DNA from: Polyangiales bacterium
GTDB taxonomy: Bacteria; Myxococcota_A; Polyangia; Polyangiales; Ga0077539
Direction: 5' to 3'
DNA length: 64,000 bases
Assembly: GCA_044229975.1 (NCBI GenBank)
Contig: JBGARZ010000013.1
Span: 128,001 to 192,000, forward strand
Every line of letters starts with the position of its first letter. Positions within the stretch are counted from its first letter, which is position 1. The notes beneath the pieces were generated by a model that had not been told where the DNA came from, ran no database searches, and saw nothing but the letters and a program-made list of their open reading frames with translations. The position numbers and the translations under genes were made by a program. Below are positions 6,861-28,170 of the stretch, piece after piece.

Positions 6861-7045
6861 TTGCGTCGCGGAAAGAGAGAGAGCCGCAAGGGCGCAAGGA
6901 TCGCAAGGGAGAGAACGAAGGGTCGGCAGATCCGACCGACGCGGTTGAGCAAGACGGACCGACGCGGATGAGCGCCGGTCCGTCCATTCCATCTCTCCCT
7001 TGCGACCCTTGCGCCCTGGCGGCCCTTTCTCTCTCGACGTCGCAT
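6861..7045. repeat. Intergenic inverted-repeat element, family 1 (GCAAGG-triplet core), copy A
   Basis: Left arm gaaagagagagagccgcaagggcgcaaggatcgcaagggagaga is an imperfect reverse complement of right arm tctctcccttgcgacccttgcgccctggcggccctttctctctc. Confidence 0.85.
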
Positions 7046-7077
7046 CCGTCACCGGCCCGCCGCGCGTAGTCCCTCCT

Positions 7078-7770
7078 GTGAGCCCGCTGCGCTTCGCCTT
7101 CATTGCTCTCCTCCTCGCCTGTCGCGCCGAACGTCCACCCGCCGTCGCCGCGCCCATCGCCGACGCCACCCCTCGCCCGTCGGTGCGCTACCTCGCGCTC
7201 GGCGACTCGTTCACCATTGGCACCGGGTCGTCCCCAGCACAGTCGTTTCCGTCGCGCCTCGTCGCCCGCTGGGACGCGCGCTGCGCCGTCACCCACCGCA
7301 ACCTCGCGGTCAACGGCTACACCACGCAGGACGTCCTCGACGAGGAGCTTCCCGAGGTGCGCCCCTTCGCGCCGACCTTCGTCACGCTCGCCGTCGGCGC
7401 CAACGACCTCGTGCGCGGCCGCTCCGTCGCCGAGTACCGCGCGCAGCTCGGTCGCCTCTTCGACGCCCTCGCCGCCGCAGGCGTCCCCGCGTCGCGCGTC
7501 GTCACGCTCCCGCAGCCCGCGTGGGACCGCTCGCCCGCCGCCGCCAACTTCGGCGACCCCGCGGTCACCGCGCGCTCCATCGCGGCCTTCAACGACGCCC
7601 TGCGCGAGGTCTCCGCCGACCGCGGCGCCCGCTACGTCGACCTCACGACCCTGCTCCGCGCGCAAGCCGAGCGCGGCCTCATCGCCCCCGACGGGCTGCA
7701 CCCCTCCGCCGAGGCCCACGACGCCTGGGCCGCCGAGCTCGATCGCACGCTGCCGCCCTGCGGCGGCTGA
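7078..7770 (+). CDS. SGNH/GDSL hydrolase, lipoprotein
   Basis: YLALGDSFT, NLAVNG, GAND, DGLHPS blocks; LLAC lipobox after GTG at 7078. Confidence 0.88.
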   Translation: MSPLRFAFIALLLACRAERPPAVAAPIADATPRPSVRYLALGDSFTIGTGSSPAQSFPSRLVARWDARCAVTHRNLAVNGYTTQDVLDEELPEVRPFAPTFVTLAVGANDLVRGRSVAEYRAQLGRLFDALAAAGVPASRVVTLPQPAWDRSPAAANFGDPAVTARSIAAFNDALREVSADRGARYVDLTTLLRAQAERGLIAPDGLHPSAEAHDAWAAELDRTLPPCGG

Positions 7771-7818
7771 GACCCTTCCAACCGTCTCCCTCGTTGGCGT
7801 ATCACCGTCGCCCCTCCC

Positions 7819-9390
7819 GTGGCGCGCTCTCCCCTGTTCGGTCGGTTGATGCACTCGCTCCGCCTCGCGTCGTGGCTCGACGCGCGCCGCGTCTCCACCG
7901 CCGAGGGCCTCGAACGCCGTGATGCCTGGAGACACCAGCGCCGCGCCCTCCTCGTCGGGGCCGTCAGCGCCGCCGGGTGCGCCACCGCGTCGACGCTCAC
8001 TCCCGCGACGACCCAGCGATCAACGGGCGATGCGGGCGTGGTCATCGTCGGCGCGGGGCTCGCCGGTCTCACCGCCGCGACGCGGTTGCACCAGGCGGGG
8101 ATACGCTCGCGGGTCTTCGACGCGCAGCGACGGGTGGGCGGGAGGGCGTTCACGCTAAGGGGTCACTTCCCGTGCAAGGCAGAGCTCGGCGGCGAGCTCG
8201 TCGACACCGGGCACACCTCCATGCGCGGGCTCGTGCGCGAGCTCGGGCTCACCCTCGTCGACCGCGACGCGGGCCTCGAACCCGGCATCGAGCGCGAGCG
8301 CTACGTCATGCTCGGCCAGAGCTGGACCGAGCGGCAGGTGGTGGAGATGTTTCGCCCCGTCGCGTCGCTCATCCGGCGCGACCGCGCGCTGCTCGGCGGA
8401 CGCGAGGTCAGCCACGCGCACCACACGCCCGCGGCCGAGTCCCTCGACGCGCTCAGCACCGGTGTGTGGCTGGAGCGCAACGGCGTTCGCGGGCCGCTGC
8501 GTGCGCTGCTCGACGCGGCCTTCACCAGCGAGCTCGGACGTGACCTCGACGGGCAGAGCGCGCTGACATTCCTGTACGCGATCGGGGCCGAGCCCGACCG
8601 CTTCGCCCTCTATGGCGACAGCGACGAGCGCTACGTGGTGGCCGAAGGGTCCGACGCGATCGCGCGCACGCTGGCCTCGCGGCTGGGCGACGCGGTGATG
8701 CCCGGACACGCGCTGGTGGCGCTGCGACCGCGCGACGACGGCCGTGTGCGCTGCGTCTTCGACCGCGAGGGGACGACCGTGGAGGTCGACGCGGGGCGGG
8801 TGATCCTGGCGCTGCCGTTCAATCAGTTGCGGCGCGTGGAGCTGGGCGTGGAGCTGCCGCCCGCCAAGCGACGCGCCATCGCCGAGCTCCCCTACGCGAC
8901 CAACACCAAGGTCTTCATCACCACCACGGCCCGCCCCTGGCGCGAGGCGCGCAGCAGCGGGACCACCTTCCACGACGGCGGCGTCTACCATGAGAGCTGG
9001 GAGTCGGTTCGCGCGGCGGGGACGGAGCACGCGCTGCTCACGGCTTTCTCGGGGGGGAGGCTCGGGGTGTCGCTCGGTGAGAGCAACCCCGAGGCGCAGG
9101 GGCGGCGCTTCGCCGAGGCGTTGGACACGGTGTTTCCGGGGAGCGCGGAGGCGTTTACGGGACGGGCGGCGCGGATGCACTGGCCCGCGGCGCCCTTCCA
9201 CGAGGGCAGCTACGCCTGCTACGGGCCGGGCGACTGGTGCCGCATCGGCGGCGAAGAGGCGACGGCCGTCGGCGCGGTGCACTTCGCGGGCGAGCACACC
9301 AGCCGGCGCGCGCCGGGCTTCATGGAAGGCGCCGTGGAGTCAGGCGAGCGGGCGGCGCGTGAGGTGATCGCGGCGACACGTCGGGGGTGA
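7819..9390 (+). CDS. Flavin monoamine oxidase family protein
   Basis: VIVGAGLAGL dinucleotide fold, RVGGR, ELGGE, HFAGEHT...GFMEGAVESGERAA. Confidence 0.9.
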   Translation: MARSPLFGRLMHSLRLASWLDARRVSTAEGLERRDAWRHQRRALLVGAVSAAGCATASTLTPATTQRSTGDAGVVIVGAGLAGLTAATRLHQAGIRSRVFDAQRRVGGRAFTLRGHFPCKAELGGELVDTGHTSMRGLVRELGLTLVDRDAGLEPGIERERYVMLGQSWTERQVVEMFRPVASLIRRDRALLGGREVSHAHHTPAAESLDALSTGVWLERNGVRGPLRALLDAAFTSELGRDLDGQSALTFLYAIGAEPDRFALYGDSDERYVVAEGSDAIARTLASRLGDAVMPGHALVALRPRDDGRVRCVFDREGTTVEVDAGRVILALPFNQLRRVELGVELPPAKRRAIAELPYATNTKVFITTTARPWREARSSGTTFHDGGVYHESWESVRAAGTEHALLTAFSGGRLGVSLGESNPEAQGRRFAEALDTVFPGSAEAFTGRAARMHWPAAPFHEGSYACYGPGDWCRIGGEEATAVGAVHFAGEHTSRRAPGFMEGAVESGERAAREVIAATRRG

Positions 9391-9445
9391 CGCGGGGACG
9401 GGGTGGCGCGGCGCACGGTACCGCTCCGGCCGAGTGAGCGGGGTG

Positions 9446-10132
9446 TCAGACCGATGCAGCGGGTCGGCGGGTGTCCGGCGCCGTGAGGTGCGGAACCGCC
9501 GCGGTGTACTCGGCGGCGCGCCCCATCATCAGGAGGACGCCTTCGAGGATGAGCGCGGCGCCGCGGTAGGTGCGCAGCCACGCGCGCTTCTCCGAGGACT
9601 GCTCCGAGAGGGTGACGAGTCGCGCGCGCTCGGCCTCGTCGCCGCGGGTGACGAGCGGTTCGAGCGTCGCGAGCTGGGCGTCGAGGCGCGCGATCCAGCG
9701 GGTGTGATCGGGCACCGACGGCTCGTGCGCGAGGTGTTCGCGGGCGACGAGCGTGGCGTCGCGGAGGTTGCGGGCCCCCTTGCCGATGCCCGTCAGGCCG
9801 TGGGGGAGGAAGAGGTGGGGGTCGCCGTTCCAGGGGTCGTGGGCGTCGGACTTGCGGGCGGCGAGGTGCAGGGCGAACGACCGGAGCTCGCCGCGCGCGG
9901 CCTTCACCACGGGCAGCTTCTCCTCGGCGGTGGCGCCGCGCTCCGACTGGGCGCCACGACTCGCCGCCATCGCCCCGCGCATGGTGAGCGTCGCGGCGTC
10001 GAGCCGATCAGCGCACCACCCGAGCATGGCGATGACGGGCGGTGGGGCGTCGACGCCGACGATGCGCCGGAGGTTGCCGCTGAAGCGGTCGCCGTAGGTC
10101 TGGGTCTCCTGGTTGTCGATGTAGCTGTCCAT
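9446..10132 (-). CDS. Hypothetical, predicted all-helical protein
   Basis: ATG at 10132 preceded by GGAGG; GC3-biased codons; no family recognised. Confidence 0.75.
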   Translation of the reverse strand: MDSYIDNQETQTYGDRFSGNLRRIVGVDAPPPVIAMLGWCADRLDAATLTMRGAMAASRGAQSERGATAEEKLPVVKAARGELRSFALHLAARKSDAHDPWNGDPHLFLPHGLTGIGKGARNLRDATLVAREHLAHEPSVPDHTRWIARLDAQLATLEPLVTRGDEAERARLVTLSEQSSEKRAWLRTYRGAALILEGVLLMMGRAAEYTAAVPHLTAPDTRRPAASV

Positions 10133-10262
10133 GGTGATGCCTCCGTCCCGGGCGGGGCGCACCGTGCGCCGTTTCCTGGAACGCAGGTTCATCGGGACGC
10201 CGACCCGGCAGGTTTCCCACCGGGTGATGAATTCGACACGAGGGGAGAAGACGAGCGTCCGC

Positions 10263-10477
10263 CCGCTACCACTCGGCCGACGTGGACCAGCGGGAAGGCA
10301 CCCGACCGCCACCACTCGGCCGACGTGGACCAGCGGGAAGACACCCGACCGCGACCGCTCGTCCGACGTGCACCAGCGGGAAGACGCCCGACCGCTACCA
10401 CTCGGCCGACGCGGACCAGCGGGCAGGCACCCGGCCGCTGCCGCTCGCCCGATGCGAACCAGCGGGCAGGCGCACGT
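10263..10477. repeat. Five tandem copies of a 43-bp unit (ccgctaccactcggccgacgtggaccagcgggaaggcacccga)
   Basis: Units start at 10263, 10306, 10349, 10392 and 10435; intergenic; period not a multiple of 3. Confidence 0.92.
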
Positions 10478-10498
10478 CAGAACTCCTGCGACCCGGGA

Positions 10499-11626
10499 CT
10501 ACGGCGTCGGCGTCATCGTCACGCCCGGCGCCGCAGCGGGAGCGGTCGTCGGCGCGGCGGGCTGCTCGTTGCCCGTCGGCGTCGCGCCCGCGGCGGTGGC
10601 CGGCGCGGCGGCCCCGAGCAGCTCGCGCAGACGCGCCCGGCGCTCGGCCTCCGGCAACTGGAGCACCTGCGTGGTGTCCATCGTCATCATCGGAACACTC
10701 CCCCCGCCCGTGACCACCGGCAGATGGCCGTCCCAGCGCTGGAGCTGCCGGTACGCGATGACGTCGCGGTTCATGGAGAGGCGGATGATCTCGTTGGCCT
10801 GCGCCTCGGAGCGCGCGCGGATGAGCAGCGCGTCGCCCTCGCCCTGCGCCCGCTGCCGCGACGCCTCGGCCTCGCCGCGCGCCTGCGCCACGGCCTGCTC
10901 GGCCTCGGCGCGAATCTGTCGCACGCGGTTTTCCGCCTGGATGGCGTTTTGCGTCGCCTCCATCGCGCGGTTGATGGCCGCGACCACGTTGTCGGGCAGC
11001 CGCAGCGCCGAGTTGAACGTGAGCTGGTCGATGACGAAGCCATCGGTGCCGAGGCGGGTCACCACCCGCTGGAGGCTCTCGTTGAGCAGCCGCGTCTTGC
11101 CCGCGCCGTAGATCTGTTGCACCGGCATCACGGCCGCGCCCTCGTTGAGCGCCTCGCGCACCACGTTGCGGACATACCCGTGGGCGAGGATGAGCACGTC
11201 GCGCTGCCGAAACCGCGCGTACAGCCGCGGCGCCCGCTCGGCCTCGACGTGGAAGGCCAGGCCCACGTCGGCGTTGACGGTCACGCCCTCCGACGACGCG
11301 AAGGTGATGGACTCGTCGATGGTCGAGCCCTCGTGGGGGTCGTGGCTCCAGACGATGTTTTGCACGCTCGTCGGAAACTCCACGACCATCTCGGTGAGGG
11401 GGTTGTAGGCGACCCAGCCCGTCACGATGGGCGCGTCCTGCACGCCCCGCGCGCTGCCCGCGAGCTTCACCCGGATGCCCACGTGCCCGGGGTCGACGCG
11501 CGCACAGCTCGCTGATCCGACCACGCACGCCAGCACCAGCACCAGCAGGGTGATGAGCCCGCTGCGCACCGCGCCCCCGACGTTGGACGGGTTGAACTGC
11601 ACCGTGTTGTTGCCTGTCTTCGCCAT
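10499..11626 (-). CDS. SPFH/Band-7/prohibitin family membrane protein
   Basis: N-terminal TM, RVDPGHVGI, VRNVVREAL, AEAEQAVAQARGEAEA coiled coil, RWDGHLP. Confidence 0.9.
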   Translation of the reverse strand: MAKTGNNTVQFNPSNVGGAVRSGLITLLVLVLACVVGSASCARVDPGHVGIRVKLAGSARGVQDAPIVTGWVAYNPLTEMVVEFPTSVQNIVWSHDPHEGSTIDESITFASSEGVTVNADVGLAFHVEAERAPRLYARFRQRDVLILAHGYVRNVVREALNEGAAVMPVQQIYGAGKTRLLNESLQRVVTRLGTDGFVIDQLTFNSALRLPDNVVAAINRAMEATQNAIQAENRVRQIRAEAEQAVAQARGEAEASRQRAQGEGDALLIRARSEAQANEIIRLSMNRDVIAYRQLQRWDGHLPVVTGGGSVPMMTMDTTQVLQLPEAERRARLRELLGAAAPATAAGATPTGNEQPAAPTTAPAAAPGVTMTPTP

Positions 11627-11639
11627 CGCCGCTCTCCTG

Positions 11640-11936
11640 TCATCCCCGCGCGGGCCGCAGCACGCGCAGCGCGAACACCACGTTGGCCACCAGCAGCAGC
11701 GCCGCCGCCGACCAGCCGAGCCACACGTCCGCGTCGCGCGGCGCGTTGACCCAGCGCACCACCGCCGTGAACACCAGCCCGTCGACCACCAGCGCCGCCG
11801 CCACCAGCACGGCCGTCTTCACGCGCGACCGCTGCGCCCCGCGGAGGCCCGCGAGCTCAGCCGTCAGCCGCGCGTTTTCCGCCGCCAGCGAGTGCCGCTC
11901 GTCCCGAAACGCCCCACGATCGCCGCCGGGTTCCAC
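11640..11936 (-). CDS. Small two-TM hypothetical protein upstream of the SPFH gene
   Basis: GTG at 11936; short coiled coil (LAAENARLTAELAGL) followed by two hydrophobic helices; stop 14 bp before the SPFH start. Confidence 0.65.
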   Translation of the reverse strand: MEPGGDRGAFRDERHSLAAENARLTAELAGLRGAQRSRVKTAVLVAAALVVDGLVFTAVVRWVNAPRDADVWLGWSAAALLLVANVVFALRVLRPARG

Positions 11937-12092
11937 TGGGCGCAGCGTATACCCCCGGCCCTCGCCCCACGCACCCGCTGACCGCGCTTTGTGAGGCTCG
12001 CGAACCACAGCGCCGCGGTGTTTCCGCCCCCGATGGAGCGGTGTTAGGGTCCGCGCCCTCCATCGCCTGAACTGCCCGCAAGAGGTTCGCTC

Positions 12093-13649
12093 GTGAAGCC
12101 CGTGCCCCGCCGACTCATCGCCTCCGTCGCGCTCGCCTCCGTCACGCTCACCGCCGCGCTGCCCTCCGAGGCCATCGTCGTCGCACGCGTCACCCGGCAC
12201 GGGTACATCCTCACCGACGCCCCGGACGACCCCATCTACGGCGAAAACCTCCCGGTCTCCAACAGCCGCGACATGATCACCTTCATCGGTGAGGCCACCG
12301 CGGTGCTGAGCGAGGTCGAGGGCTTCCACGCGGGGAAGTTTCTCGCGACGATGCAGCTCCCGAGCACCCAGAGCCCGCTGGCGTTCTACCTCCCCATCCG
12401 CAACGACGTGCGCGGCATCGGGCAGCGCAGCAACGCCGACACGCGCGTCGAGGTCTTCGACAACAACCGCGCCTACAACACCGCCTTCTCCCTCGACGGC
12501 TTCCTCTACCTCAACTCCCTCCGCTTCTACACCGACCCGCGCTCCATCAACTTCGGGCGCTACCTCATCTGCACCCAGGAGTTCGGTCACCGCTACGGGC
12601 CGCGCAACGAGGTCCCCGCGTTTCCCCTCGGCGCCTCCGACGGCGGCGTGACCAACGACGGCGGCGTGACCAACGACGGCGGCGTCGCCACGCCCGATGT
12701 GACCGAGCTCGACGTCGCCACGGTGGATGTGCCCGCGACGGACGTACCCGTGACCGACGTGCCCGCGACCGACGGCGGCGCGCGCGACGGGTCCGCCGAC
12801 GCTGCCACCGGCCCGATCGCTCTCGTCCGCGACGCGCTCCTCGGCCGCGGCAACGAGGTCAACGGCATGGTCACCAACCGCGCCCACTGGAGCTACTTCT
12901 TCAACACCGGCGGATCGCCGATGGAAGGCAACCTCTGGACGGAGTCGGAGCCGGGGACCTTTCGCACCGAGCGACCGTCGTTTCGCTTCTCCGACTTCGA
13001 CCTCTACAACATGGGCCTCGTGCCCGCGTCCGCGGTGCGCCCCACCTTCCTCATCGCCGAACCCACCATGCTCCCGCGCGGCATCGACCGCGACTCCGCG
13101 CCCGAATACTCGGGCCGAACGGTGACCATCCGCGGCCGACGCGTCCCCGTCTCCATCGACGACATCATCTACGCCAACGGCCAGCGCAGCCCCGCGTACC
13201 CCGACACCCCGCGCGACCTCGACGTCGTGTGGGTGCTCTGGGTCGAGCCCGATCAGGTGACCGACGACCTCGCCGCGGAGTTCGACCAGGCCATCGAGTC
13301 GTGCGCCCTCGGCTACGACACCGCGAGCGCCAACCTCTCGCGCCTCGTCTCCAACACCCCCTTCGTCGAGCCCCCCGACGCGGGCTTCACCCCCGACGCA
13401 GGCACACCCGACGCGGGCGCTGAAGACGCCGGAACACCCGACAGCGGAATCAACTTCCCCCCCGAGGACGTGGTGCTCGCGACCGAGGACGTCGTGACGC
13501 CCGTCGCCCCCACCGCCGCGGGCGGCTGCGCCTGCTCCACCCACGCGCGGCCCACCGCCCCGTCGGGACTCTGCGCCGTCGGCGTCGCGTTGGCGCTTGC
13601 CACCACGCTGCGCCGCCGGCGCCGCGGGGTGGTAGCCTCGGCCGCGTGA
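12093..13649 (+). CDS. Secreted metallopeptidase-like protein with MYXO-CTERM-like tail
   Basis: Signal peptide; TQEFGH, AHWSYFF...MEGN and DLYNMGL motifs; C-terminal GGCAC, hydrophobic stretch and RRRRR. Confidence 0.75.
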   Translation: MKPVPRRLIASVALASVTLTAALPSEAIVVARVTRHGYILTDAPDDPIYGENLPVSNSRDMITFIGEATAVLSEVEGFHAGKFLATMQLPSTQSPLAFYLPIRNDVRGIGQRSNADTRVEVFDNNRAYNTAFSLDGFLYLNSLRFYTDPRSINFGRYLICTQEFGHRYGPRNEVPAFPLGASDGGVTNDGGVTNDGGVATPDVTELDVATVDVPATDVPVTDVPATDGGARDGSADAATGPIALVRDALLGRGNEVNGMVTNRAHWSYFFNTGGSPMEGNLWTESEPGTFRTERPSFRFSDFDLYNMGLVPASAVRPTFLIAEPTMLPRGIDRDSAPEYSGRTVTIRGRRVPVSIDDIIYANGQRSPAYPDTPRDLDVVWVLWVEPDQVTDDLAAEFDQAIESCALGYDTASANLSRLVSNTPFVEPPDAGFTPDAGTPDAGAEDAGTPDSGINFPPEDVVLATEDVVTPVAPTAAGGCACSTHARPTAPSGLCAVGVALALATTLRRRRRGVVASAA

Positions 13650-14707
13650 GCCGCGAGACCCCTCCACTCCCCCAACACGTCTTCCGCTGGGACCTCGACA
13701 AGACCTACCTCCACACCGAGTTCGATCACTGGATCGACCTCGTGAAGACCGCCGTCGAGACGCCCGAGACCAAGCGCTCCATGCCCGGCGCCGCGCGCCT
13801 CATCCGCGCGCTCAAGCTCCACCAGCCGAGCCGCGTCACCATCCTCTCGGGCAGCCCCGAGCAGATGCGCGGAACCCTCGAATCCAAGCTCCGCCTCGAC
13901 GGCATCGCGTGGGACGAGTTCACCCTCAAGCCGTCCGTCCGCAACATCCTGCGGCTGCGCTTTCGGGCCCTGCGCGACCAGCTCGGGTACAAGCTCCCGG
14001 CCCTCCTCGACGCCCGCACCCGCGTCGCCCAGGACGTCCCCGAAACCCTCTTCGGCGACGACGCCGAGGCCGACGCGCTCGTCTACTCCCTCTACGCCGA
14101 CGTGCTCTCGGGCAAGGTCTCGGACCGTCAGCTCACGGCCGTTCTGGAGCAGTCCCGCACCTACGCCGACGTCGTGTCGGAGGTCATCCGCCTCGTGCAT
14201 CGCGTGGAGAAGGGCGACGTCGTGCGCCGCATCTTCATCCACCTCGAACGCCGCTCCGACCCCGACTTCTTCCGTCTGTATGGGCCGCGCGTGGTGCCCG
14301 TCTCCAACTACCTCCAGGCCGCCGTGGTGCTCGTCTCCGACGGGCTCCTCGGCACCGACGCCCTCGCCCCCATCGCCGCCGCCGTGCACACCGAGACGCA
14401 GCTCCCGGTGCCCGCGCTCGCCGCCACGCTGCATGACCTCGTGCGCCGCGGCGACCTCACGCCCGACGTCGTGCACCGCGTCGCCAAGGCCCTCGGTGAC
14501 TCCGCCCCGCAGCTCGACCTCACCGCCGACGAGCTCACCGAGCTCGCCGATGCCCTGCAGGACACACCCCCCGCGGCCGATCCTCCGCCGGTCGTGGCGA
14601 TCGACTACCTCAACGCCCTCGACGACGACCGCGCGCGCTGGGAGGCCGCCCGCCTCGCGGCCCGCGCCCGCAACCGCGAGCGCAGCAAGCCCCCGACGGA
14701 GCAGTGA
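13646..14707 (+). CDS. HAD-like phosphatase domain protein (App1/LNS2-like)
   Basis: WDLDKT (DxDxT), ILSGSP, FGDDAEAD; start overlaps the upstream stop. Confidence 0.65.
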   Translation: MSRETPPLPQHVFRWDLDKTYLHTEFDHWIDLVKTAVETPETKRSMPGAARLIRALKLHQPSRVTILSGSPEQMRGTLESKLRLDGIAWDEFTLKPSVRNILRLRFRALRDQLGYKLPALLDARTRVAQDVPETLFGDDAEADALVYSLYADVLSGKVSDRQLTAVLEQSRTYADVVSEVIRLVHRVEKGDVVRRIFIHLERRSDPDFFRLYGPRVVPVSNYLQAAVVLVSDGLLGTDALAPIAAAVHTETQLPVPALAATLHDLVRRGDLTPDVVHRVAKALGDSAPQLDLTADELTELADALQDTPPAADPPPVVAIDYLNALDDDRARWEAARLAARARNRERSKPPTEQ

Positions 14708-14761
14708 CGCCGCGCGGCGCGCACGGTGGACGCACCACCCGCCGCTCTCTACACTGCCTTC

Positions 14762-16099: not shown

Positions 16100-16130
16100 G
16101 CGCAGCACCACGGCGGCCCGCGCCCCCGAC

Positions 16131-18732: not shown

Positions 18733-20301
18733 CTACCGCGGAATCGCGCACTGCAAGCGCGTGAACCACGCCTGGATGCGCCCCTCGCGCTGATCGCGGA
18801 AGAGCACGCCCACGTCACCATCGGGCCCGCGCGCGAGCACCGGGTACACGCTCGCCGTCGGGCCCATCGCGGTGCGGGTCACCCGCGACTCCGCGCTCAG
18901 AGGCGCCAGATCCGCCGTGAACGTGCGCGCCCACAGTGAGTATTGCCCGCCGTCGCGGTCGTCGGCCCAGGCCATCAGCACCCGATCGCCCAATGGCAAC
19001 AAGGTTGGATATCGACTGAAGCCCGCGTCCATCGTGAGCCGCTGCGCCGCCCGCATCGCGCCGCCGCCCGCCGCCCTCGTCGCGCCCCACACCTCGTGGT
19101 CGGGCGACATCTCGTCGTCGTCGAACCAGGCGAGCACCCAGCGATCGCGGTTCCAGACCACCTGCGCGCCGATGGCGCTGGTGGTCTGTGGAGACACCTG
19201 CTGGTCGGGAGAGACCCGCGTGAGGTTGCGGTCGAAGGTCGCGAACCAGACCGCGCGACGCCCGCTGCGACCGTCCATCCACGCGACGCCGATGCCCGCT
19301 TCGTTGATGGCCACCGCGGGCGCCTCGCTGTTGGACCGATCACGCGTCAACCGCTGGTTGGGCAGGATGAGCCGCCCCTCCTCGTCGATGCGCTGCGCGT
19401 AGATCTCATAGGCGCCGGCGTCGAGGGAGTCGCGCTCGTCCTGCCACACCAGGATGAACTCCTCGCCCGTCCACGCGATGCTCGGGTTGATGGAGAAGCC
19501 CGGCGCAAAGGAGATGCGCTGGTCGGGCCCCACCCGCTCGCCCGCTGGCGTCAGTCGGTTGAAGTAGATCTCGTAGCCGCCCGATGGGTCGCGCCGGTCT
19601 TGCCACACGGCGCCCAGCACCCGCCCGCTCCACGCGAGCGACGCACCAAACGCGTCGTTGGGCGTCGTCGTCACCTGCTGCCGCATCCCCACCGGCGCGC
19701 CGTCCCGATCGATCTCCCGATAGAACACCCGCGCCCGGCTCTCGGCATATCCCCAATAGCTCACGCCATATCGGTTGCCGGTCCATTGGACACCGCCCGG
19801 CCCGCTCGGGGCGACCTCGGCCTCGCTCACCCGCACCACGCTGCCCACCGGCGTCAGCGTCGCGTTGTCGTCGATGACCCCGTTGCAGTCGTCGTCGAGC
19901 CCGTTGCACAGCTCCGTCGCGCCGGGATGAACCGCCCGGTTGGTGTCATCGCAATCATCACCGCAGCGGTTGGGCGCGCCCGGGAGCGTCCCCGCCCGCG
20001 GCGCGCGAAACCCATCACCGTCGCGGTCTTCCGTCGCGGGCTGGCTCTGACACGCGCGCAGCGTCTCGTCGCAGGCCACCGCGATGCAGGTCGTGCTGCC
20101 CATGCAAACGAGCGGTGCGCCGGGGATGCACCGCTCCTCCACGCAGGTCTCCTGGCCGTCGCAGAAGAGCTGGTTGTCGCAGTCCTGATCGCTCGTGCAC
20201 GGTGGTACGGGCGGACCCGCGTCGCGGTCGAGCAGCCCCGTGCGCGCCCCGCACCCGACCAGCAGCACCAGCGGCCACAGGCAGGCCCGGTAGCCACTCA
20301 C
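18733..20301 (-). CDS. Lipoprotein with a Cys/Asp putative metal-binding repeat and beta-rich repeats
   Basis: LVGC lipobox; DCDDTNRAVHPGATELCNGLDDDCNG motif; repeated W-x-D-x-R...EIY blades. Confidence 0.8.
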   Translation of the reverse strand: MSGYRACLWPLVLLVGCGARTGLLDRDAGPPVPPCTSDQDCDNQLFCDGQETCVEERCIPGAPLVCMGSTTCIAVACDETLRACQSQPATEDRDGDGFRAPRAGTLPGAPNRCGDDCDDTNRAVHPGATELCNGLDDDCNGVIDDNATLTPVGSVVRVSEAEVAPSGPGGVQWTGNRYGVSYWGYAESRARVFYREIDRDGAPVGMRQQVTTTPNDAFGASLAWSGRVLGAVWQDRRDPSGGYEIYFNRLTPAGERVGPDQRISFAPGFSINPSIAWTGEEFILVWQDERDSLDAGAYEIYAQRIDEEGRLILPNQRLTRDRSNSEAPAVAINEAGIGVAWMDGRSGRRAVWFATFDRNLTRVSPDQQVSPQTTSAIGAQVVWNRDRWVLAWFDDDEMSPDHEVWGATRAAGGGAMRAAQRLTMDAGFSRYPTLLPLGDRVLMAWADDRDGGQYSLWARTFTADLAPLSAESRVTRTAMGPTASVYPVLARGPDGDVGVLFRDQREGRIQAWFTRLQCAIPR

Positions 20302-20825
20302 TGGCAGGCACCGAAGTCGGGGAGGTCGGTGGGCTCACACACCGTGCCGCGCTGGCACCGTGGCTCGGTGCCGTCGAGGCGACACAGGCGCAGGCAGCGG
20401 TTCATCGCGCCCGTGACGAAGCAGCCCGCACCCGCGGTGCACTCGGTGCCCGTGCGGCAGAACGTCCCCGGAGCATTGCTCCCTGCGGGAAAGCACCGCG
20501 CCCGGTAGGTCTCGCTCCCGCAGCGCACCGACGGGTACTCGATGAACGCGTAGCACCCCTCGCCCGCGGGACAGCCGCCGCCCGCGATCGGGTCGCACTC
20601 GTACGCGCGCTGCGCCGGAGGGCGGGCGCCGCCGCACGCGTCTTCGCGGTAGACGTCGTACACGCGCACGTCGAAGTAGGGGACGTCGCGCACGTCGCCG
20701 CCGAGGTCGCGCGACGCGGCGCTGTCACCGCGCCCGCCGACGCTTCCGTCCGGGCCGCCTGTGCCATCGACGGTGCTGGCACACCCCAGAGACGCCCACG
20801 CCAACAGCGAAATCACGCGCCGCAT
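20298..20825 (-). CDS. Small Cys-rich lipoprotein
   Basis: SLGC lipobox; many paired Cys; stop overlaps the next gene's start. Confidence 0.72.
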   Translation of the reverse strand: MRRVISLLAWASLGCASTVDGTGGPDGSVGGRGDSAASRDLGGDVRDVPYFDVRVYDVYREDACGGARPPAQRAYECDPIAGGGCPAGEGCYAFIEYPSVRCGSETYRARCFPAGSNAPGTFCRTGTECTAGAGCFVTGAMNRCLRLCRLDGTEPRCQRGTVCEPTDLPDFGACQ

Positions 20826-21004
20826 CTGCACTACCGCCTCCGAGGGTTCGCAGCCTCGCACGGACATGGTGCAAGTGGCAGGCCCCGTCGACCCCTCGTG
20901 CGCGACCGATGGCGCGAGGGTCGCGGGTGCCGCACAGCGTCAGGAAGTTAGCGGTAGACCGCGCGACGAACGATCGGCTACCGCAGAGCGAAGAGGAGCG
21001 ACGC

Positions 21005-22006
21005 ATGGAGTACACGGTCACGTTGATTCCGGGGGATGGGATCGGGCCCGAGGTGACGGCGGCGACGCAGCTCGTCGTGGCGGCGACGGGCGTGAAGGTT
21101 CGGTGGGAGCCCTTCGAGGCGGGCGCGGCGGCGGCGGAGAAGTACGGCAACCCGTGCCCCGACGAGGCGATCGAGTCGATTCGCCGCAACCGCATCGCGC
21201 TGAAGGGGCCCGTGGGGACGCCCATCGGGACGGGGTTTCGCTCGGTCAACGTGACGCTGCGGCGGGCGCTCGACCTCTACGCGTGCGTGCGGCCGGTGAA
21301 GTCGATCAAAGGGGTTCCGTCCCGCTACGACGACGTCGACCTGGTGATCGTGCGGGAGAACACCGAGGGCCTGTATTCGGGCGTCGAGCACATGGTGGTT
21401 CCGGGCGTCGCAGAGAGCCTGAAGATCGTCACCGAGAAGGCGTGTCTGCGCATCTGCGAGTACGCGTACCGCCACGCGCGCGCCAACAACCGCAAGAAGG
21501 TCACGGCGGTGCACAAGGCCAACATCATGAAGCTGACGGACGGGATGTTTCTCGACGTCGCGCGGCGGGTGTCCAAGCGGTACGCCGACATCGAGGCGCA
21601 TGAGGCCATCGTCGACGCGTGCTGCATGCAACTGGTTCGTGACCCGTCGCGCTTCGACGTGCTGGTGATGGACAACCTCTATGGGGACATCCTGAGCGAC
21701 CTGTGTGCAGGGCTCGTCGGGGGATTGGGCGTCGTCCCGGGGGCGAACTTCGGGGAGAACTGCGCGGTGTTCGAGGCGGTGCACGGCAGCGCGCCGGACA
21801 TCGCCGGCAAGAACGTCGCGAACCCCACGGCGCTCATCCTGTCGGCGGCGATGATGCTGCACGCCATGGGCGAGCGCGACGCAGGGAAGAAGGTGGAAGA
21901 CGCCGTCGCGTGGCTCTACGCGGAGACCGACGTCCGCACCGGTGACCTGGGCGGCAAGGTCGGCACGATGGAGTTTGCGGAGGCGCTGGCGAAGCGGGTG
22001 AGCTGA
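21005..22006 (+). CDS. Isocitrate/isopropylmalate dehydrogenase family, probably NAD-dependent isocitrate dehydrogenase
   Basis: IPGDGIGPEV, SVNVTLRR, VRENTEGLY, VHKANIMK, NLYGDILSD, FEAVHGSAPDIAG; GAGGAG RBS. Confidence 0.92.
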   Translation: MEYTVTLIPGDGIGPEVTAATQLVVAATGVKVRWEPFEAGAAAAEKYGNPCPDEAIESIRRNRIALKGPVGTPIGTGFRSVNVTLRRALDLYACVRPVKSIKGVPSRYDDVDLVIVRENTEGLYSGVEHMVVPGVAESLKIVTEKACLRICEYAYRHARANNRKKVTAVHKANIMKLTDGMFLDVARRVSKRYADIEAHEAIVDACCMQLVRDPSRFDVLVMDNLYGDILSDLCAGLVGGLGVVPGANFGENCAVFEAVHGSAPDIAGKNVANPTALILSAAMMLHAMGERDAGKKVEDAVAWLYAETDVRTGDLGGKVGTMEFAEALAKRVS

Positions 22007-22095
22007 GGGTCGCGAGCCCACGGAACCGTGACGTCGTCGAAGGCGCGGTCGTAGAGTTCATCGACGGCGATGCGGAGGTCGGGCGAGTGCCTGTC

Positions 22096-22419
22096 CACAG
22101 GAGACTTCGATGCGTTGGAGAGCATCCGCCCACGTCGGCCCAACGCCCCTCACCGTCGCGCAGCGACGGGGCGACGCGTGGTCGGAGATGGGCCGCCAGG
22201 GCGCAAGGGTCGCAAGGGAGCAAGCGATAGGGGCGGTTCGGCGCTCCCGACGCCACCAGCCTGCGAACGTGGATGTGTCGTAGCCCACTCACTCCTTGCG
22301 ACCCTGGCGCCCTGGCGGCCCATCTCCGACCACGCGCCGCCCCGTCGCTTCGCGACGGTGAGGGGCGTTGGGCTGACGTGAACGAGTGCTCGGCGATCAA
22401 CCCATCGAAGTCCCCTGTG
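22096..22419. repeat. Intergenic inverted-repeat element, family 1, copy B (arms over 120 bp)
   Basis: cacaggagacttcgatg...cccaacgcccctcaccgtcgcg...gggccgccagggcgcaagggtcgcaagg is mirrored by ccttgcgaccctggcgccctggcggccc...cgcgacggtgaggggcgttggg...catcgaagtcccctgtg. Confidence 0.88.
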
Positions 22420-23095
22420 AGCGGGTCCTTCGCAGACTCACGCGACGTGCGACGACCGCCGCGCAGTCCGCGCAGAAGCGCCCGCCGCGTGCGTCGATTG
22501 TCTCGACCGAGTCGACGTCGGCGTCGCCGATCATCAAGCAGTCCACACCCTCTTCGTAGCTGTGATGATCGAGCCCGAAGGTGTGACCGATCTCGTGCAG
22601 CGCGATCTTCGCCGCGCGCGTAACGAGTCGGCGCCGCGAGGGACAATCGGCGTCGAGCATGTGCAGGCTCAACACGCAGGCCGGGCGCGCGAGGTAGGCG
22701 AGGCCAAAGACGAAGTTCCAATCGCGGCGCGGTGTGATGTTGTCTTCGGTGATCCCCAGCGAAGCGACCGCCCCCGCCAGCTTCCGGCGCTCCACCTGCG
22801 CGAGGAACACGTTGGCCGACCGACCACGCCACCCCGCCGCGCTCCGCACCGACGGCCGCGCGTCGACCGCCGCTGGCTGCACCACCACCGGCACGCCCAG
22901 GGCGCGCGTCACCGCCGTCGAGAGTGAGCGCACGAAACCAGCCCGCATCGGCCCCAGCGTCCACAGTGACACCGCCCCGCGCGCGTCGACCACGAGCGGC
23001 GCCCGACACGCGGGACACCGCCGTCGCGAGAGCACCACCCGCGCACCGCAGCCGCACTCGTGCGCGTCGGAGAGGCGCTTCACGGTCGCTTTCAC
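22397..23095 (-). CDS. Archaemetzincin-like Zn metalloprotease (peptidase M54) with N-terminal CxxC pair
   Basis: FVFGLA, HEIGHTFGLDH, CLM and FCADC motifs. Confidence 0.8.
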   Translation of the reverse strand: MKATVKRLSDAHECGCGARVVLSRRRCPACRAPLVVDARGAVSLWTLGPMRAGFVRSLSTAVTRALGVPVVVQPAAVDARPSVRSAAGWRGRSANVFLAQVERRKLAGAVASLGITEDNITPRRDWNFVFGLAYLARPACVLSLHMLDADCPSRRRLVTRAAKIALHEIGHTFGLDHHSYEEGVDCLMIGDADVDSVETIDARGGRFCADCAAVVARRVSLRRTRSQGTSMG

Positions 23096-23129
23096 ACAGC
23101 GACCATACAGCGATCCGTAGGCCGACCCG

Positions 23130-23996
23130 TCACCCCATGAAGGCCGCGCGGTGGTCGCGCGCGAATGCCGCCAGCGAGCGCGGCTCCGCGCCCGTCACGC
23201 GTCGCACGTCGTCGGTCACCCGCTCGGTGCGGCCCGCCGCGAAGGCCGTCACGTAGACGTCCGTCAGCAGCTCCGCGAACCACCGCGGCAGCCCCGCCTC
23301 CACCATCCCCTGACAGAACGCCGCGCCCGGCAGGTCGATGAACTGCACCGGTCGCCCCAGCGCCTCGCCCAGCACCCGCGCCGCGTCGCCGTGGCTCAAC
23401 GACTCCGGGCCCGTCAGCGTGTACGTGCGACCCGCGTGGCCGTCCTCCGTGAGCACCTTCTCGGCCACCCGCGCGATGTCGCCCGCGTCGATGAGCGCCG
23501 ACCGCGCCGCGCCCGTCGGCATCGGGAGCGCGCCGTTGCGGATGGCGCCCGCGAGGCCGAGGAAGTTCTGCATGAAGAAGTTGGGGCGCAGCACCGTGGC
23601 GGGCACACCCGACGCGGCGAGGTGCCGCTCGATCGCCCCGTGAATCGCCTGGATGCGCGCGGGACCATCCGGGTGCGCGTCGACACCCGACACCTTCACG
23701 TAGTGCCCGACGCCCGCCGCCTTCGCGGCGTCGATGAGCGCCGACTCCGCGCTCACCAGATCGAGCGTTCCGGTCGGGCCTCCAACCGCGACGTACATCC
23801 GCTCGGCCCCAGCGAGGGCGCGGCTGAAGGTGTCCGGTCGCTCGATGTCCCCGACCACGAACTCCGCCCCCTCGCCCACCGCGCGTCGCGCCCGCTCGAC
23901 GTCGCGCGCCACCACGCGCACGCGGCGACCCGCCGCGACCAGGGCCTTCACCAGTGGGGTTCCCGTGCTACCCGTTGCTCCGTAGACGACGATCAT
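23130..23996 (-). CDS. NmrA-like atypical SDR, NAD(P)H-binding
   Basis: IVVYGATGSTG, LRPNFFMQN, IDAGDIA, YTLTGPE; GGAGGAG RBS. Confidence 0.9.
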   Translation of the reverse strand: MIVVYGATGSTGTPLVKALVAAGRRVRVVARDVERARRAVGEGAEFVVGDIERPDTFSRALAGAERMYVAVGGPTGTLDLVSAESALIDAAKAAGVGHYVKVSGVDAHPDGPARIQAIHGAIERHLAASGVPATVLRPNFFMQNFLGLAGAIRNGALPMPTGAARSALIDAGDIARVAEKVLTEDGHAGRTYTLTGPESLSHGDAARVLGEALGRPVQFIDLPGAAFCQGMVEAGLPRWFAELLTDVYVTAFAAGRTERVTDDVRRVTGAEPRSLAAFARDHRAAFMG

Positions 23997-24090
23997 GGCG
24001 CTCTCTCCTCCGGTTGGTGATTCAACCGAAGGCCACCGTGCGCCGAGCGACGTCACCCGAGAATTGGCCGGGTGGCGCATGGACGGGCGT

Positions 24091-25617
24091 TCAGGCGTCG
24101 AGCAGGCGGTGCTCCATCGCGAAGAGCGCGAGGCCCGCGCGGCTCTCCAGGCCGAGCTTCTCGTAGACGTTCATCACGTGCTTCTGTGCCGTGCGCGGCG
24201 ACATCCCGAGCAGCGCCCCCACCTCCGGGTTGGTGCGCCCCACCGCCACCAGACGGATCACCTCGACCTCGCGATCGGTGAGCCCGCGCGGCCACGCCGA
24301 CGAGCGCTCACGGGCGACGCCAGCGGCCTCCAGCACGGCGCCGACGGCGGTGCGATCGAGGGCACCGTCGCGCACCATCGCGAGCATCTCGCGACGCGAC
24401 GCCTCGGGCGCAAAGGCCTCTCGATGGGGCCGCCTGGAGCAGAGGGCCACGTAGACGTCCGCGGCAGCGAGCACCCGCGCCACGGCCGGAACGCTCTCCA
24501 ACCCCAGCCGTCGGTGATAGCCCGCGCCCGCACCGCGCTCGTGGGTGGCCGCGGCGACATCGGCGAAGGGACCCAGCGCCGGAGCGAGCCGGAGGATGGT
24601 CTCGGTCTGCTGGCTATGGGTTCGCACGCGCTCGCGCTCGTAGGGGGTGAGCGCGCCGGGCTTCTCCCACACGCCGTTGGCAACAGCCACGCGACCGAGG
24701 TCGTGCACGAGACCAGCGTCGCGCGCGAAGCCCGGGTCGGGCAGCGCGGCGATGACCGCGGCCTTCTCCGCGAGCTCGGCGACGCGCTCGGAGTGACCGA
24801 GCGTAAACACCGACCCGAGGTCGGCGAAGCGAGAGAACGCCCGCAGGTAGCGGGTGACCTCCGCCCCGTCGACGGCGATGAGATGGGGTGCGGGCTCCGA
24901 GGCGAGAAAGGCGTCCCACACCGAGCTGCCGTAGAGGGGCGCCCAGAGCTCGCCCGCGTGCGCGATGAAGGCGTCGACCATGACCGGATCGAGCTCTCCT
25001 CCACGGCGGCGACGGAGCTCGGCGAGGGCCTCGTCGGGGCCGAAGTTCCAGGCGTAGAGCTCGGCGGTGTCGGCGACGTCGGCGAGGCGCGCGGCGGCCG
25101 GCATCGCGTCGCCGCCGCGCGCAGACAGCGGGCCGCGGCCGTCCCAGCGCTCCCCCCGCAACATGAGCACGTCGGCGACCGCGGGCATGCCGACGGCGAG
25201 CGCGAAGCCACGGCCGCCCTCGCACTGGGCGTGGGAGTGGCCGGCGACCGCAGCGGGGGTCAGGAGGCGACCGATGGCCGCGGCGCGTGCGGCGATGGGG
25301 GCGTGCGCGGCGATGCCGCGGAGGGCGGCCGCGACGAAGGTCGACGGGCGGCCGAAGTCGACCATGGCGAGCGTGCGGCGCAGGGCGATGTCGTCGCCCG
25401 CGCTGAAGTAGCGGCCCTCCTCGTGGGCGAAGGAGGTGCAACCCACGAAGCGCAGCAGCGTCGCCCAGAACGCCGCCCGAACGCCCTCGTCGTCGGCCCC
25501 GGTGGCGCGCGCGAGGCGACACGCGAGCACGGTGTTGCGCAGCGACTTCTCCAGGGCGAACCCGTCGGCGAGGTCGGTGGCGAGGGAGAGCGACCCGAGC
25601 AGCTCCGCGACACGCAT
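24091..25617 (-). CDS. HD-GYP-like domain / LuxR HTH transcriptional regulator
   Basis: ELLGSLSLATDL, ERWDGRG, VHDLGR, HER, and C-terminal GLTDREVEV...SPRTAQKHVMNVYEKLG. Confidence 0.88.
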   Translation of the reverse strand: MRVAELLGSLSLATDLADGFALEKSLRNTVLACRLARATGADDEGVRAAFWATLLRFVGCTSFAHEEGRYFSAGDDIALRRTLAMVDFGRPSTFVAAALRGIAAHAPIAARAAAIGRLLTPAAVAGHSHAQCEGGRGFALAVGMPAVADVLMLRGERWDGRGPLSARGGDAMPAAARLADVADTAELYAWNFGPDEALAELRRRRGGELDPVMVDAFIAHAGELWAPLYGSSVWDAFLASEPAPHLIAVDGAEVTRYLRAFSRFADLGSVFTLGHSERVAELAEKAAVIAALPDPGFARDAGLVHDLGRVAVANGVWEKPGALTPYERERVRTHSQQTETILRLAPALGPFADVAAATHERGAGAGYHRRLGLESVPAVARVLAAADVYVALCSRRPHREAFAPEASRREMLAMVRDGALDRTAVGAVLEAAGVARERSSAWPRGLTDREVEVIRLVAVGRTNPEVGALLGMSPRTAQKHVMNVYEKLGLESRAGLALFAMEHRLLDA

Positions 25618-25654
25618 GGTGGGCTCCGATGGTACGACAGTCGTCGGAGCACCG

Positions 25655-26404
25655 ATGAGCACGCACCCCGATCGCATCCTCTACACCTTCAAGATCTCCC
25701 ACTACGCCGAGAAGGCGCGCTGGGCCCTCGACCGCAAGGCGCTGCCCTATCGCGAGGAGGCCGTGCTCATCGGCCCCGGCCAGGTGCTGCTCAAGCTGCG
25801 CACCGGCAGCCGACAGGTTCCGGTGCTCGATGATGGTGGGCACGTGGTGCCGGGCTCGACCGCCATCCTCGAACACCTCGATCGGCGCTACCCCACCGCG
25901 CCGCTCTGGCCGGAAGACCCGACGGTGCGCGACGAAGCGAAGTCCCTCGTCACCTGGATCGACGAGCGCATCGGCAAGGGCGTGCGGGGCTACCTGCTCG
26001 CGCAGGCGCGTCACAACAAGCGCATCGGGGTGGGCGCGAAGGTCGCGCAGGTGGTGGGCCCCGCGGTGCTGGGCGTCGCGTCGGACTACTTCGGCTACGA
26101 GTCCCTCGACCGCGCGCAGGAGGAGTTTCCCAAGGACCTCCGCGAGCTCGCCGCGCGCCTCGTGGGCAACGACTTCCTCGTGGGTGACCGCTTCGGCGCG
26201 GCCGACCTCACCGCGGCGTCGCTGCTCAACGCGCTGTATGCGCCGGTCGGGTCGCCGCTGCGCACCCGGCTCAACAGCCACCGCCCGGGCATCGCGAAGG
26301 ACCGCGAGCTCACCCCGCTCTTCGACTGGCTCGACCGGATGTACCGAGACCACCGCCGCGCCCGACCGGTCGCCGACTACGGCACGCCGTCGAGCGCGGC
26401 GTAG
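25655..26404 (+). CDS. Glutathione S-transferase family protein
   Basis: SHYAEKARWALD, QVPVL, GSTAILEHLD, FLVGDRFGAADL. Confidence 0.88.
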   Translation: MSTHPDRILYTFKISHYAEKARWALDRKALPYREEAVLIGPGQVLLKLRTGSRQVPVLDDGGHVVPGSTAILEHLDRRYPTAPLWPEDPTVRDEAKSLVTWIDERIGKGVRGYLLAQARHNKRIGVGAKVAQVVGPAVLGVASDYFGYESLDRAQEEFPKDLRELAARLVGNDFLVGDRFGAADLTAASLLNALYAPVGSPLRTRLNSHRPGIAKDRELTPLFDWLDRMYRDHRRARPVADYGTPSSAA

Positions 26405-26408
26405 CGGG

Positions 26409-26738
26409 TCACTTCACCGCGAGCAGCTCGACGTCGAAGACGAGCGTGGCGTGGGGCGGAATCCTCCCGCCAGCCGCGCCGCCCGCGCCGTAGCCGAGCT
26501 CCGAGGGGATGGTGAGCTTGCGCTTGCCGCCGACCTTCATGCCGACGACCCCCTGGTCCCACCCCTTGATGACGCGCCCGGCGCCGAGGGAGAACGAGAA
26601 GGGGCGGCCGCGGTCGACGGACGAATCGAACTTCGTCCCGTCGGTGAGCCAGCCCGTGTAGTGCACGTCGACGGAGCGGCCCGTGGTGGCTTCGGCGCCG
26701 GTCCCAACCTGGAGGTCTTCGATCTTGAGGTCTGCCAT
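26409..26738 (-). CDS. FKBP-type peptidyl-prolyl cis-trans isomerase
   Basis: VHYTGWL.DG.KFDSS.DR, VIKGWDQG, IPSELGYG, TLVFDVELL. Confidence 0.95.
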   Translation of the reverse strand: MADLKIEDLQVGTGAEATTGRSVDVHYTGWLTDGTKFDSSVDRGRPFSFSLGAGRVIKGWDQGVVGMKVGGKRKLTIPSELGYGAGGAAGGRIPPHATLVFDVELLAVK

Positions 26739-26800
26739 GATGGCCGCGACGCTCTCACGCCCGACGGGTCGGTGTGAAGACCGCCGGTGGCCCTTGTCCG

Positions 26801-27907
26801 CTACCGCCAGGCCTGCACGCGGTAGGCGTCGCCGTTGTCGTCGCCGACGAGGTACAGCCGCTGCCCGCCGCCGCACACGACGTCGCGCGCCACGTTGCCC
26901 GACTCGGTGAGCGCTGCGGGCGCGCCCTGCCCCGTCCACCGCCACACCTGCGGGCGCGTTCGGTAGCGGGCGCGCGTCAACAGCACCGTGGTGCAACCGG
27001 GGCCCGTCGCCGCGGGGTCGAGCGCGAGCAGCACCCGCCGGTAGTCGTTGAAGCCGATGTCCACCACCGGGTCGTGCGCCGCGAGGGACGTCGGCAGCAC
27101 CGCCTCCAGCGACGGCGCCGTCGGGTCCCACGCGATGCGCGGGTGACCCATCGGGCTGCCCGTCCCGCGGGCGCTCAGCGTCGCGAACCACGTCACCACC
27201 GCCGTCGCCGAGGGCGCCACCGCCGCGTGCGCCCGGTCGATCATCGCCTCGGGCCACGCGAGCGTCGCCCCCGCCGGCTGCTGCGCCGTGAGCTCGTCCC
27301 ACTCCGCGCCGCGACCCGCGAAGGCTACCGCCGTGCTGTCGAAGCGGCCGCGTCGCAGCCCGCTGAAGCCCCCGGTGGTCGACCACGGCGCGCGGGTGAG
27401 CAGCACCGTCGCGCTCGACTCGGTGTACCGCGGCGGCCGCTCGTGGCTGCGCCGCGTCGTCTGCGCGCTCACCACCACGGTCATCGCCTGCGTCGCGCAG
27501 TACTGCACCTGCCCCGCTGCGCCTTCGGGGTGATCGACCGCGGCTTCTGTGATGGTGCCCGCCGGGCCGGGCGCCGCGAGGGTCAGCGCCGTCAAGCGCT
27601 GGAAGCCCGACACGCCCGCGATGACGGCCACACACTCGCGCGCCGCGAGGTTGACCGTGAGCTGCAACGGCCCTCCCGCGCCGACGGCCCGCGCCGACGC
27701 GCTCACGTCCGCCGCCGGGGGGAAGCCCGTCGCGGTCGCACTCGCGAGCTCCCGCGCGATGGCCGCGCGCGTCACCTCGACGGGCGTCGCCGTCGGCACG
27801 CTCTGCACGGCCGCCTCGTCGGCGAACGCGTACGCCCCGATCACCCCGGCGACCGCAGAGCAGCAGCCCGCCACCACCAGCCCAGCCGTGCGCGCAACCG
27901 ACACCAT
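26801..27907 (-). CDS. Hypothetical protein with N-terminal membrane anchor or signal
   Basis: ATG at 27907; hydrophobic N-terminus; GC3-biased frame. Confidence 0.62.
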   Translation of the reverse strand: MVSVARTAGLVVAGCCSAVAGVIGAYAFADEAAVQSVPTATPVEVTRAAIARELASATATGFPPAADVSASARAVGAGGPLQLTVNLAARECVAVIAGVSGFQRLTALTLAAPGPAGTITEAAVDHPEGAAGQVQYCATQAMTVVVSAQTTRRSHERPPRYTESSATVLLTRAPWSTTGGFSGLRRGRFDSTAVAFAGRGAEWDELTAQQPAGATLAWPEAMIDRAHAAVAPSATAVVTWFATLSARGTGSPMGHPRIAWDPTAPSLEAVLPTSLAAHDPVVDIGFNDYRRVLLALDPAATGPGCTTVLLTRARYRTRPQVWRWTGQGAPAALTESGNVARDVVCGGGQRLYLVGDDNGDAYRVQAWR

Positions 27908-27958
27908 CGCACCGTCGCATCCTCCGCCCGTCCCCCACAAGGGACGATTGCGGTCCTG

Positions 27959-28170
27959 GGACTCGGAGTGGGCAGTGAGGGAGTCAGAAGAGCCGCAAGG
28001 GGCGGTTGGGCATTGAGGGCGAGAGCGTGAAGCGCTGGGTGAGCACGACCGTTCGAGCCACCACATCACAACCTTGCGCTCGCCTGTGCCTCTCACACCC
28101 GAACTGCACCCCTTGCGACCCTCGCGCCCTTGCGGCTCTTCTGACTCCCTCACTGCCCACTCCGAATCCT
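27959..28170. repeat. Intergenic inverted-repeat element, family 1, copy C
   Basis: Perfect 39-bp inverted repeat 27963..28001 / 28127..28165; the right arm continues inward into the GCAAGG-triplet core. Confidence 0.9.

Follow-up and report, generated by a model that had tools for sequence, protein, structure and literature searches.

Three intergenic hairpins, here called elements A, B and C, stand out in a 64-kb window of a Polyangiales genome (positions 128,001 to 192,000 of contig JBGARZ010000013.1, assembly GCA_044229975.1), and analysis of their relatives connects them to the GxxExxY proteins, a family common across prokaryotes and without an assigned function. Each hairpin is built on inward-facing copies, one of them truncated in C, of a core of three short repeated units; elsewhere in the genome the same core pair encloses a gene for a GxxExxY protein, and the short hairpin pairs very probably derive from this gene-carrying cassette. 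For the window elements we lean modestly towards the fuller explanation that they are gene-less deletion derivatives of the cassette, spread by the predicted nuclease cutting at paired cores together with host repair, and a catalytic role for the GxxExxY protein in that spread carries the same modest confidence.

The assembly bearing the window (10.0 Mb, 93% complete) is referred to as G000 and its relatives as G001, G002 and so on. An earlier, sequence-only reading of the window had suggested a genome-wide search for the core, which we defined as a degenerate 26-nt pattern of three GCAAG-type units, matched at four mismatches or fewer. The core proved to be far above chance frequency and mostly paired: G000 has 205 matches against none for the reversed pattern. 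Of these, 178 are arranged head to head as 89 pairs; the gap measures 38-119 nt in 88 of them and 602 nt in the remaining one. Nine of the 27 single cores lie beside a truncated partner, and cores in pairs have slightly fewer mismatches than single ones (0.38 against 0.67). Short pairs are mostly extragenic, with 4 of 88 overlapping a called gene; 32 of 83 lie between convergent genes, compared with 332 of 2368 background gaps, mostly at most about 45 nt from the 3' ends, and both the overlap and the convergent-gene counts rest on a crude gene caller. Outside the core, sequence conservation tails off over about 8 nt and the flank composition has no conserved tag. Ten of 41 genomes, all of one family, carry the core, with 2 to 197 matches each.

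Mate cores are identical in 31% of the 89 pairs, compared with 5% of 4976 random pairs, and among 27 pairs with well-paired outer arms, 15 arm pairs resemble their own mate more than any other copy; both observations lend support to the earlier suggestion that the inverted copies are homogenized. The spacers between mates had been described as unrelated, which does not hold genome-wide: 60 of 88 fall into eight families, the largest of which (29 members) is a loose chain. Since so many spacers have relatives, and since neither flank is homologous in 62 of 114 spacer links, modules are mixed at the core.

The sole long pair in G000, that with the 602-nt gap, encloses the genome's only PF13366 match, a TIGR04256 GxxExxY protein that scores 129 bits against a curated cut-off of 35 and is thus a full member of the GxxExxY/PDDEXK_3 family. 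The G000-type core flanks the GxxExxY gene on both sides in G001 and on the 5' side in G003. When the search was made from the side of the repeat, 26 metagenome loci yielded 16 head-to-head pairs, and a full GxxExxY gene is enclosed by all four long pairs and by none of the 12 short ones. From the side of the gene, we looked at 64 GxxExxY loci (35 from the phylum and its relatives; the other 29, spanning many phyla, from GTDB records), of which 63 were scored and one with a short flank was left out; loci from related genomes are not independent. When the upstream flank was compared with the reverse complement of the downstream one, 41 of the 63 loci reached a score of at least 34; in direct orientation 6 of 63 did so, and among cross-locus comparisons 125 of 3906. 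Triple repeats face inward on both sides at 24 of 63 loci and outward on both sides at two, and farther windows gave 0 of 29; the inward pattern was built on the first set of 35 loci, and in the second set of 29, which was not used to shape it, it is present on both sides at 11 loci. The repeat unit differs by lineage: across phyla its type changes together with the gene under an unchanged layout. Of five other genomes that were tested, four contain short pairs or single arrays built from a repeat type of their own. Four GxxExxY loci (L072, L074, L088 and L045) are flanked by whole gene-less hairpins and not by single arrays.

Two further candidate partners were rejected: the one DUF559 gene of G000 has no core within 3 kb, and a four-helix-bundle gene (PF05635) was not found in the 93% complete G000. 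The DUF559 gene (L017, C11:568631-568933) has a paired hairpin repeat upstream and could represent a parallel nuclease-plus-repeat unit. We found no description of a link between GxxExxY genes and repeats in the literature, most subscription journals and all supplements lying outside that search; the passage on the family in PMC3424549 gives its function as "Unknown", reports multiple transfers, and names no repeats.

Short pairs in related genomes retain pieces of the gene. A survey of 21 loci from G005, G011, G019 and G020 identified two short pairs at different loci of G011 in which a 5' gene piece is joined to a 3' piece, with the junction at the same 5-nt shared word, and a third G011 pair that carries the 3' 180 nt of the GxxExxY gene; in G019, one pair has a clear 5' gene piece and a second a weak one, and the pairs examined in G005 and G020 have none. 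In G001, two neighbouring genes are held apart by a 1.39-kb insert that carries a short pair together with a full cassette; G000, G002, G003 and G004 all lack the insert, and there the two genes are no more than about 16 nt apart. The cassettes of G000, G001 and G003 have only the cassette itself in common and differ in their flanks, their sites being non-orthologous. Given the gene inside the long pairs, the deleted gene pieces in short pairs and the absence of the insert from four relatives, the hairpins are likely to be non-autonomous derivatives of the cassette. In the wider collection, many short PF13366 fragments span only the first 30 or the last 45 residues, and two of them (G261:C33:3010-3102 and G196:C1:68854-68940) adjoin triple repeats, which suggests that deletion derivatives may be common.

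In an alignment of proteins from 49 of the 64 GxxExxY loci, residues G28, E33, D72, E82, K84, Y100 and R125 are invariant. The structure model of the protein (predicted local distance difference test, pLDDT, 92.5) has its best fold match in the Cas4 protein SSO0001 (Z 7.9, root mean square deviation (rmsd) 2.7, 97 aligned), with matches also to BpuSI (Z 7.6, rmsd 2.9, 95 aligned) and Hjc (Z 6.6, rmsd 3.2, 86 aligned); nearly all top rows are PD-(D/E)XK proteins, and the 50 fold matches listed include no HUH or DDE protein. No sequence relative was found in the PDB at E-values up to 1, and the Atlas gave only GxxExxY clusters. As modelled, the GxxExxY protein is a PD-(D/E)XK fold with acidic and lysine active-site residues, and nuclease activity is predicted for it. 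Free-standing homing endonucleases and Cas4/Hjc-type enzymes are likewise small nucleases that could spread by cut-and-repair; dispersed miniature hairpins are not known from those systems, and no conserved target gene was seen here.

In the mechanism we propose, the three units, spaced 8-9 nt apart, would be binding sites of the GxxExxY protein, and its substrate would be a pair of such arrays facing inward, or else the hairpin into which the pair can fold. The protein would cut at inward-facing core pairs, and host repair would then copy or convert the unit elsewhere; such repair-based copying would explain why the ends are fuzzy, why no target duplication is present and why spacers and flanks are mixed. 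The outer arms form a second layer, made up of ends of the insertion sequence (IS) IS630 and of two further repeats; the IS630 transposase would additionally move the IS630-ended subset, and strand switching, which is known to occur at hairpins, probably keeps mates within a hairpin alike. The repeats provide each GxxExxY protein with a predicted, lineage-specific DNA substrate, so that its function becomes directly testable. Extended beyond this genome, the proposal would describe mobile DNA of a widespread class that relies on a PD-(D/E)XK nuclease and on no transposase. GxxExxY proteins would recognize inward phased triple repeats and use cut-and-repair to spread both the cassette and gene-less hairpins in their hundreds; by recombination with other repeats, IS630 ends among them, the hairpins would become Russian-doll composites whose modules are exchanged at the core. 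This we advance tentatively, as a serious possibility rather than as the expected outcome. If it is true that the nuclease spreads hairpins, abundant palindromes in bacteria would have a third route of origin, next to DDE-driven MITEs (miniature inverted-repeat transposable elements) and HUH-driven doublets of repetitive extragenic palindromes (REPs), known as REPINs.

Several observations weigh against spread by the GxxExxY nuclease, or against the cassette as source of the hairpins. A hydrolytic nuclease is not known to have a way of integrating DNA unaided, and every fold match of the protein lies below Z 8. Most spacers in G000 are without a gene remnant, nhmmer having found none, and in comparison with shuffled sequences they pass z 3 in 6 of 178 tests against the cassette ends and in 1 of 178 against its middle. 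The ends of the G001 insert do not match core positions and no terminal repeat was seen, and 22 of the 63 GxxExxY loci have no scored inverted flank. Core and gene numbers do not track each other across the 41 genomes: cores are present in seven genomes in which no intact GxxExxY gene was found, examples being G020 (96% complete, 144 core matches) and G005 (64% complete, 110 matches), G001 has the gene and only two strict core matches, and one 465-nt pair in G020 encloses no GxxExxY gene.

Some of these points would fit an unlikely alternative, in which the hairpins are derived from the cassette but are not moved by the GxxExxY protein. The protein would be carried along as a passenger, perhaps serving in defence or addiction as a nuclease, with arms that are regulatory sites, and spread would be due only to IS630 or other wrapper ends and to host recombination between cores. 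At the pairing cut-off, a score of 10, well-paired outer arms are present in 27 of 89 pairs and in 6 of 267 cross-locus controls; long paired outer arms are thus a minority feature, and the outer arm of A scores 6. The arms had been said to differ completely between loci, which holds inside the window, but genome-wide 68 of the 205 half-elements fall into seven shared arm clusters. We coined the names SF1, SF2 and SF3 for classes of outer arm. SF1 arms match both termini of an element, 1533 nt long, with a gene for an IS630 transposase (assigned by NF033545), and such IS630 ends are found on 44 of 205 half-elements. Because the arms fall into shared classes, one of which matches the ends of a resident IS, the outcome named at the outset as telling against the sequence-only reading was in part observed.

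IS630 targets TA dinucleotides, as is familiar from IS630-family MITEs. Matching 2-nt direct repeats like those at the full IS border 5 of 13 IS630-ended short elements (four TA, one GA) and are absent from the other eight, and the IS630-wrapped subset has likely been moved as ordinary MITEs by the resident IS630 transposase. By their ends, this subset of core pairs qualifies as IS630 MITEs; SF1 elements, and in decayed form element B, end in resident IS630 terminal repeats, but the interior of SF1 elements is a core pair from another system and not deleted IS sequence. The core family as a whole lacks the features by which MITEs are recognized, namely terminal repeats that are conserved, ends that are fixed and a duplicated target. 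A passenger role is favoured by the recognized wrapper class on 62 of 205 half-elements, by the youngest, near-identical copies being those with IS630 ends, and by the genomes with more than 100 cores and no gene found. The remaining 143 half-elements have no recognized wrapper. Against a passenger role, 55 of the 89 pairs have none on either side, spacers recur beside unrelated flanks, and the repeat type changes with the gene across phyla under a constant layout.

The other two classes extend the layering. The hairpin module SF2 gave 31 hits, of which 12 lie near a core; it also forms core-less pairs, one of which is itself enclosed by IS630-like ends. SF3 ends are found around core pairs, around spacers that lack a core and around the arms of a Y1_Tnp gene, and no full-length IS with SF3 ends was found in G000. 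This nesting fuses unrelated repeat systems into composites that look "inside-out" in single windows. Cyanobacterial short tandem (STRR) and small dispersed (SDR) repeats are likewise dispersed, have short periodic units of 7-9 nt and are reported as nesting. The SF3 wrapper carries cargo of two unrelated repeat systems, being found around the arms of the repeat of Y1_Tnp gene L013 at C2:122156-122529, C19:491552 and C34:259896 of G000. Two IS630-ended elements lie on contig C14 (C14:83945-84186 and C14:131516-133203), one with a tandemly duplicated core pair and the other abutting a full IS630 copy at its left end. At C4:10715-10893 both ends share a non-TA variant in inverted and not direct orientation, which suggests copying between the arms after insertion.

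The window elements illustrate these layers. The sequence-only reading had picked out the same three intergenic inverted repeats, which are indeed the three longest listed for the window, and the 31-bp identity that it noted between the left core of B and the reverse strand of A is exact. Element A (6861-7045) consists of a core pair that encloses no gene and of outer arms that are short, rich in purines and outside every recognized class, so that A is unwrapped; it sits between two co-oriented genes, the downstream one encoding a GDSL lipase. Its inverted repeat (6862-6926/6980-7044, 65 nt, 82% identity) contains a left 26-nt triple-GCAAG core (6883-6908, forward strand), an 89-nt spacer (6909-6997) with a loose link to the 29-member spacer family, and a right core (6998-7023, reverse strand).

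Element B (22086-22429), between convergent isocitrate/isopropylmalate dehydrogenase and peptidase M54 genes, consists of three nested layers, with IS630-like ends around SF2 hairpin modules around a core pair, and its inverted repeat (22120-22217/22294-22391) is 98 nt long with 92% identity. From the outside inwards, the forward-strand half has a decayed IS630 terminal inverted repeat (22086-22116, alignment score 31), an SF2 module (22109-22172), a repeat with an internal hairpin that is also found without a core, and the left core (22192-22217); after a 76-nt spacer (22218-22293) common to three other elements in G000 follow, on the reverse strand, the right core (22294-22319), SF2 module (22339-22402) and decayed terminal repeat (22399-22429, alignment score 35). 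Both alignment scores are against the ends of the IS630 copy at G000:C32:623276-624808, for which the 99.5th percentile of the background is 21, and no TA duplication is recognizable at these ends of B.

Element C (27956-28169), between divergent genes, has 43-nt arms around one truncated and one full core. Its arms (27959-28001/28127-28169) agree at 42 of 43 positions (98%) and do contain the perfect 39-nt run described earlier, but C is not a full core pair, only the first unit being left of the left core (27992-28001, forward strand); the right core is complete (28111-28136, reverse strand). The arms likely belong to the SF3 family, under a pattern that allowed the variant letters of C and a class threshold that its right arm just reached. 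The spacer (28002-28110) weakly resembles the GxxExxY cassette at its 3' end (z 4.07, 0 of 60 shuffles as good, in one of 356 tests) and is among the six G000 cassette-end tests above z 3; nhmmer found no GxxExxY gene remnant in it.

It is quite improbable that the family is kept for RNA hairpins, as terminators, 3' stabilizers or the structured RNA scaffold once suggested for the window elements. All three fold far better than shuffled sequences (z-scores of -10.9, -20.6 and -10.4), and the bias towards convergent genes points the same way, though it would also be expected of tolerated insertion. A single core is no palindrome and shows no folding beyond that of shuffled sequences (z +1.1 and +0.4), no structure inside the hairpins is common to the elements, and Rfam gave no match at gathering score in the window. 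No core lies behind the orthologue of the left gene of B in any of six relatives (two of the contigs for B being short), nor behind that of the left gene of A in any of six, and an RNA function leaves the enclosed gene unexplained. A related idea, of a mini-hairpin with a C-GNNA-G loop in each unit, was rejected, as the core folds no better than shuffles and the units of other phyla do not fit it.

The suggestion of a non-autonomous, REPIN-like element with a small nuclease gene beside the core stands in so far as the cognate gene lies elsewhere in G000, but the enzyme is a PD-(D/E)XK protein and not a HUH-type REP-associated tyrosine transposase (RAYT). The window had been said to hold no cognate enzyme, and this is correct: none of its 30 scanned open reading frames is a GxxExxY, RAYT or transposase gene, and genome-wide family searches place these elsewhere. 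As described in PMC3116915 and PMC3733652, REPINs are inverted, intergenic doublets with a spacer and many gene-less copies, the RAYT gene is present once and has this repeat at its flanks, doublets are better kept than singlets, and the proposed origin is from the flanks of an autonomous element. Our core family likewise comprises inverted extragenic doublets, gene-less copies and a single gene flanked by the same repeat, yet its gene is of the PD-(D/E)XK type and not HUH Y1, and its unit consists of three phased direct 8-9-nt words, unlike the REP, a palindrome with a GTAG or CGTC tag. The family is thus REPIN/RAYT-like in layout and fails two defining features of REPINs, the palindromic REP and the HUH enzyme. 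That the hairpins are REPINs mobilized by a resident RAYT is largely refuted: the doublet layout, the better conservation of pairs and the four Y1_Tnp genes of G000 would suit it, but none of the four has a core within 3 kb, each (L013-L016) having its own long inverted or tandem flanking repeat, and the core is not palindromic.

Equally far-fetched is the strongest version of the sequence-only reading, by which a core pair would turn any neighbouring DNA into inverted copies, and to which the few pairs with 15-41 nt paired arms that have only weak relatives elsewhere, and the likeness of arms to their own mates, lend something, since 62 of 89 pairs have no long paired arms, one of the 27 well-paired arm sets met the definition of "private", and SF2 and SF3 pairs exist without cores.

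The relatives are too distant for empty sites of A, B and C to be recognized. The gene order behind the left gene of B is altered and A is a variable site, the contigs of a relative at about 89-96% identity bridge neither A nor B, and the flanks of C have no match at an E-value of 1e-30 in any of eight relatives. Sites orthologous to B and A (L024, L022, L023 and L124) hold other palindromes, namely a hairpin pair, Y1_Tnp-type arms and an IS630-like end, and the 3' ends at A and B therefore look like repeat hotspots.

Other repeats in the window are of different kinds. Five tandem copies of a 43-nt unit lie at 10213-10476, and 36-nt and 51-nt tandem repeats at 49637-50284 fall within a called reading frame, in a region encoding low-complexity protein. 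At 2143-5460, two tandem genes for T2SSE-family ATPases, presumably of the PilT/PilU type, have a 300-nt repeat in common at 78% identity.

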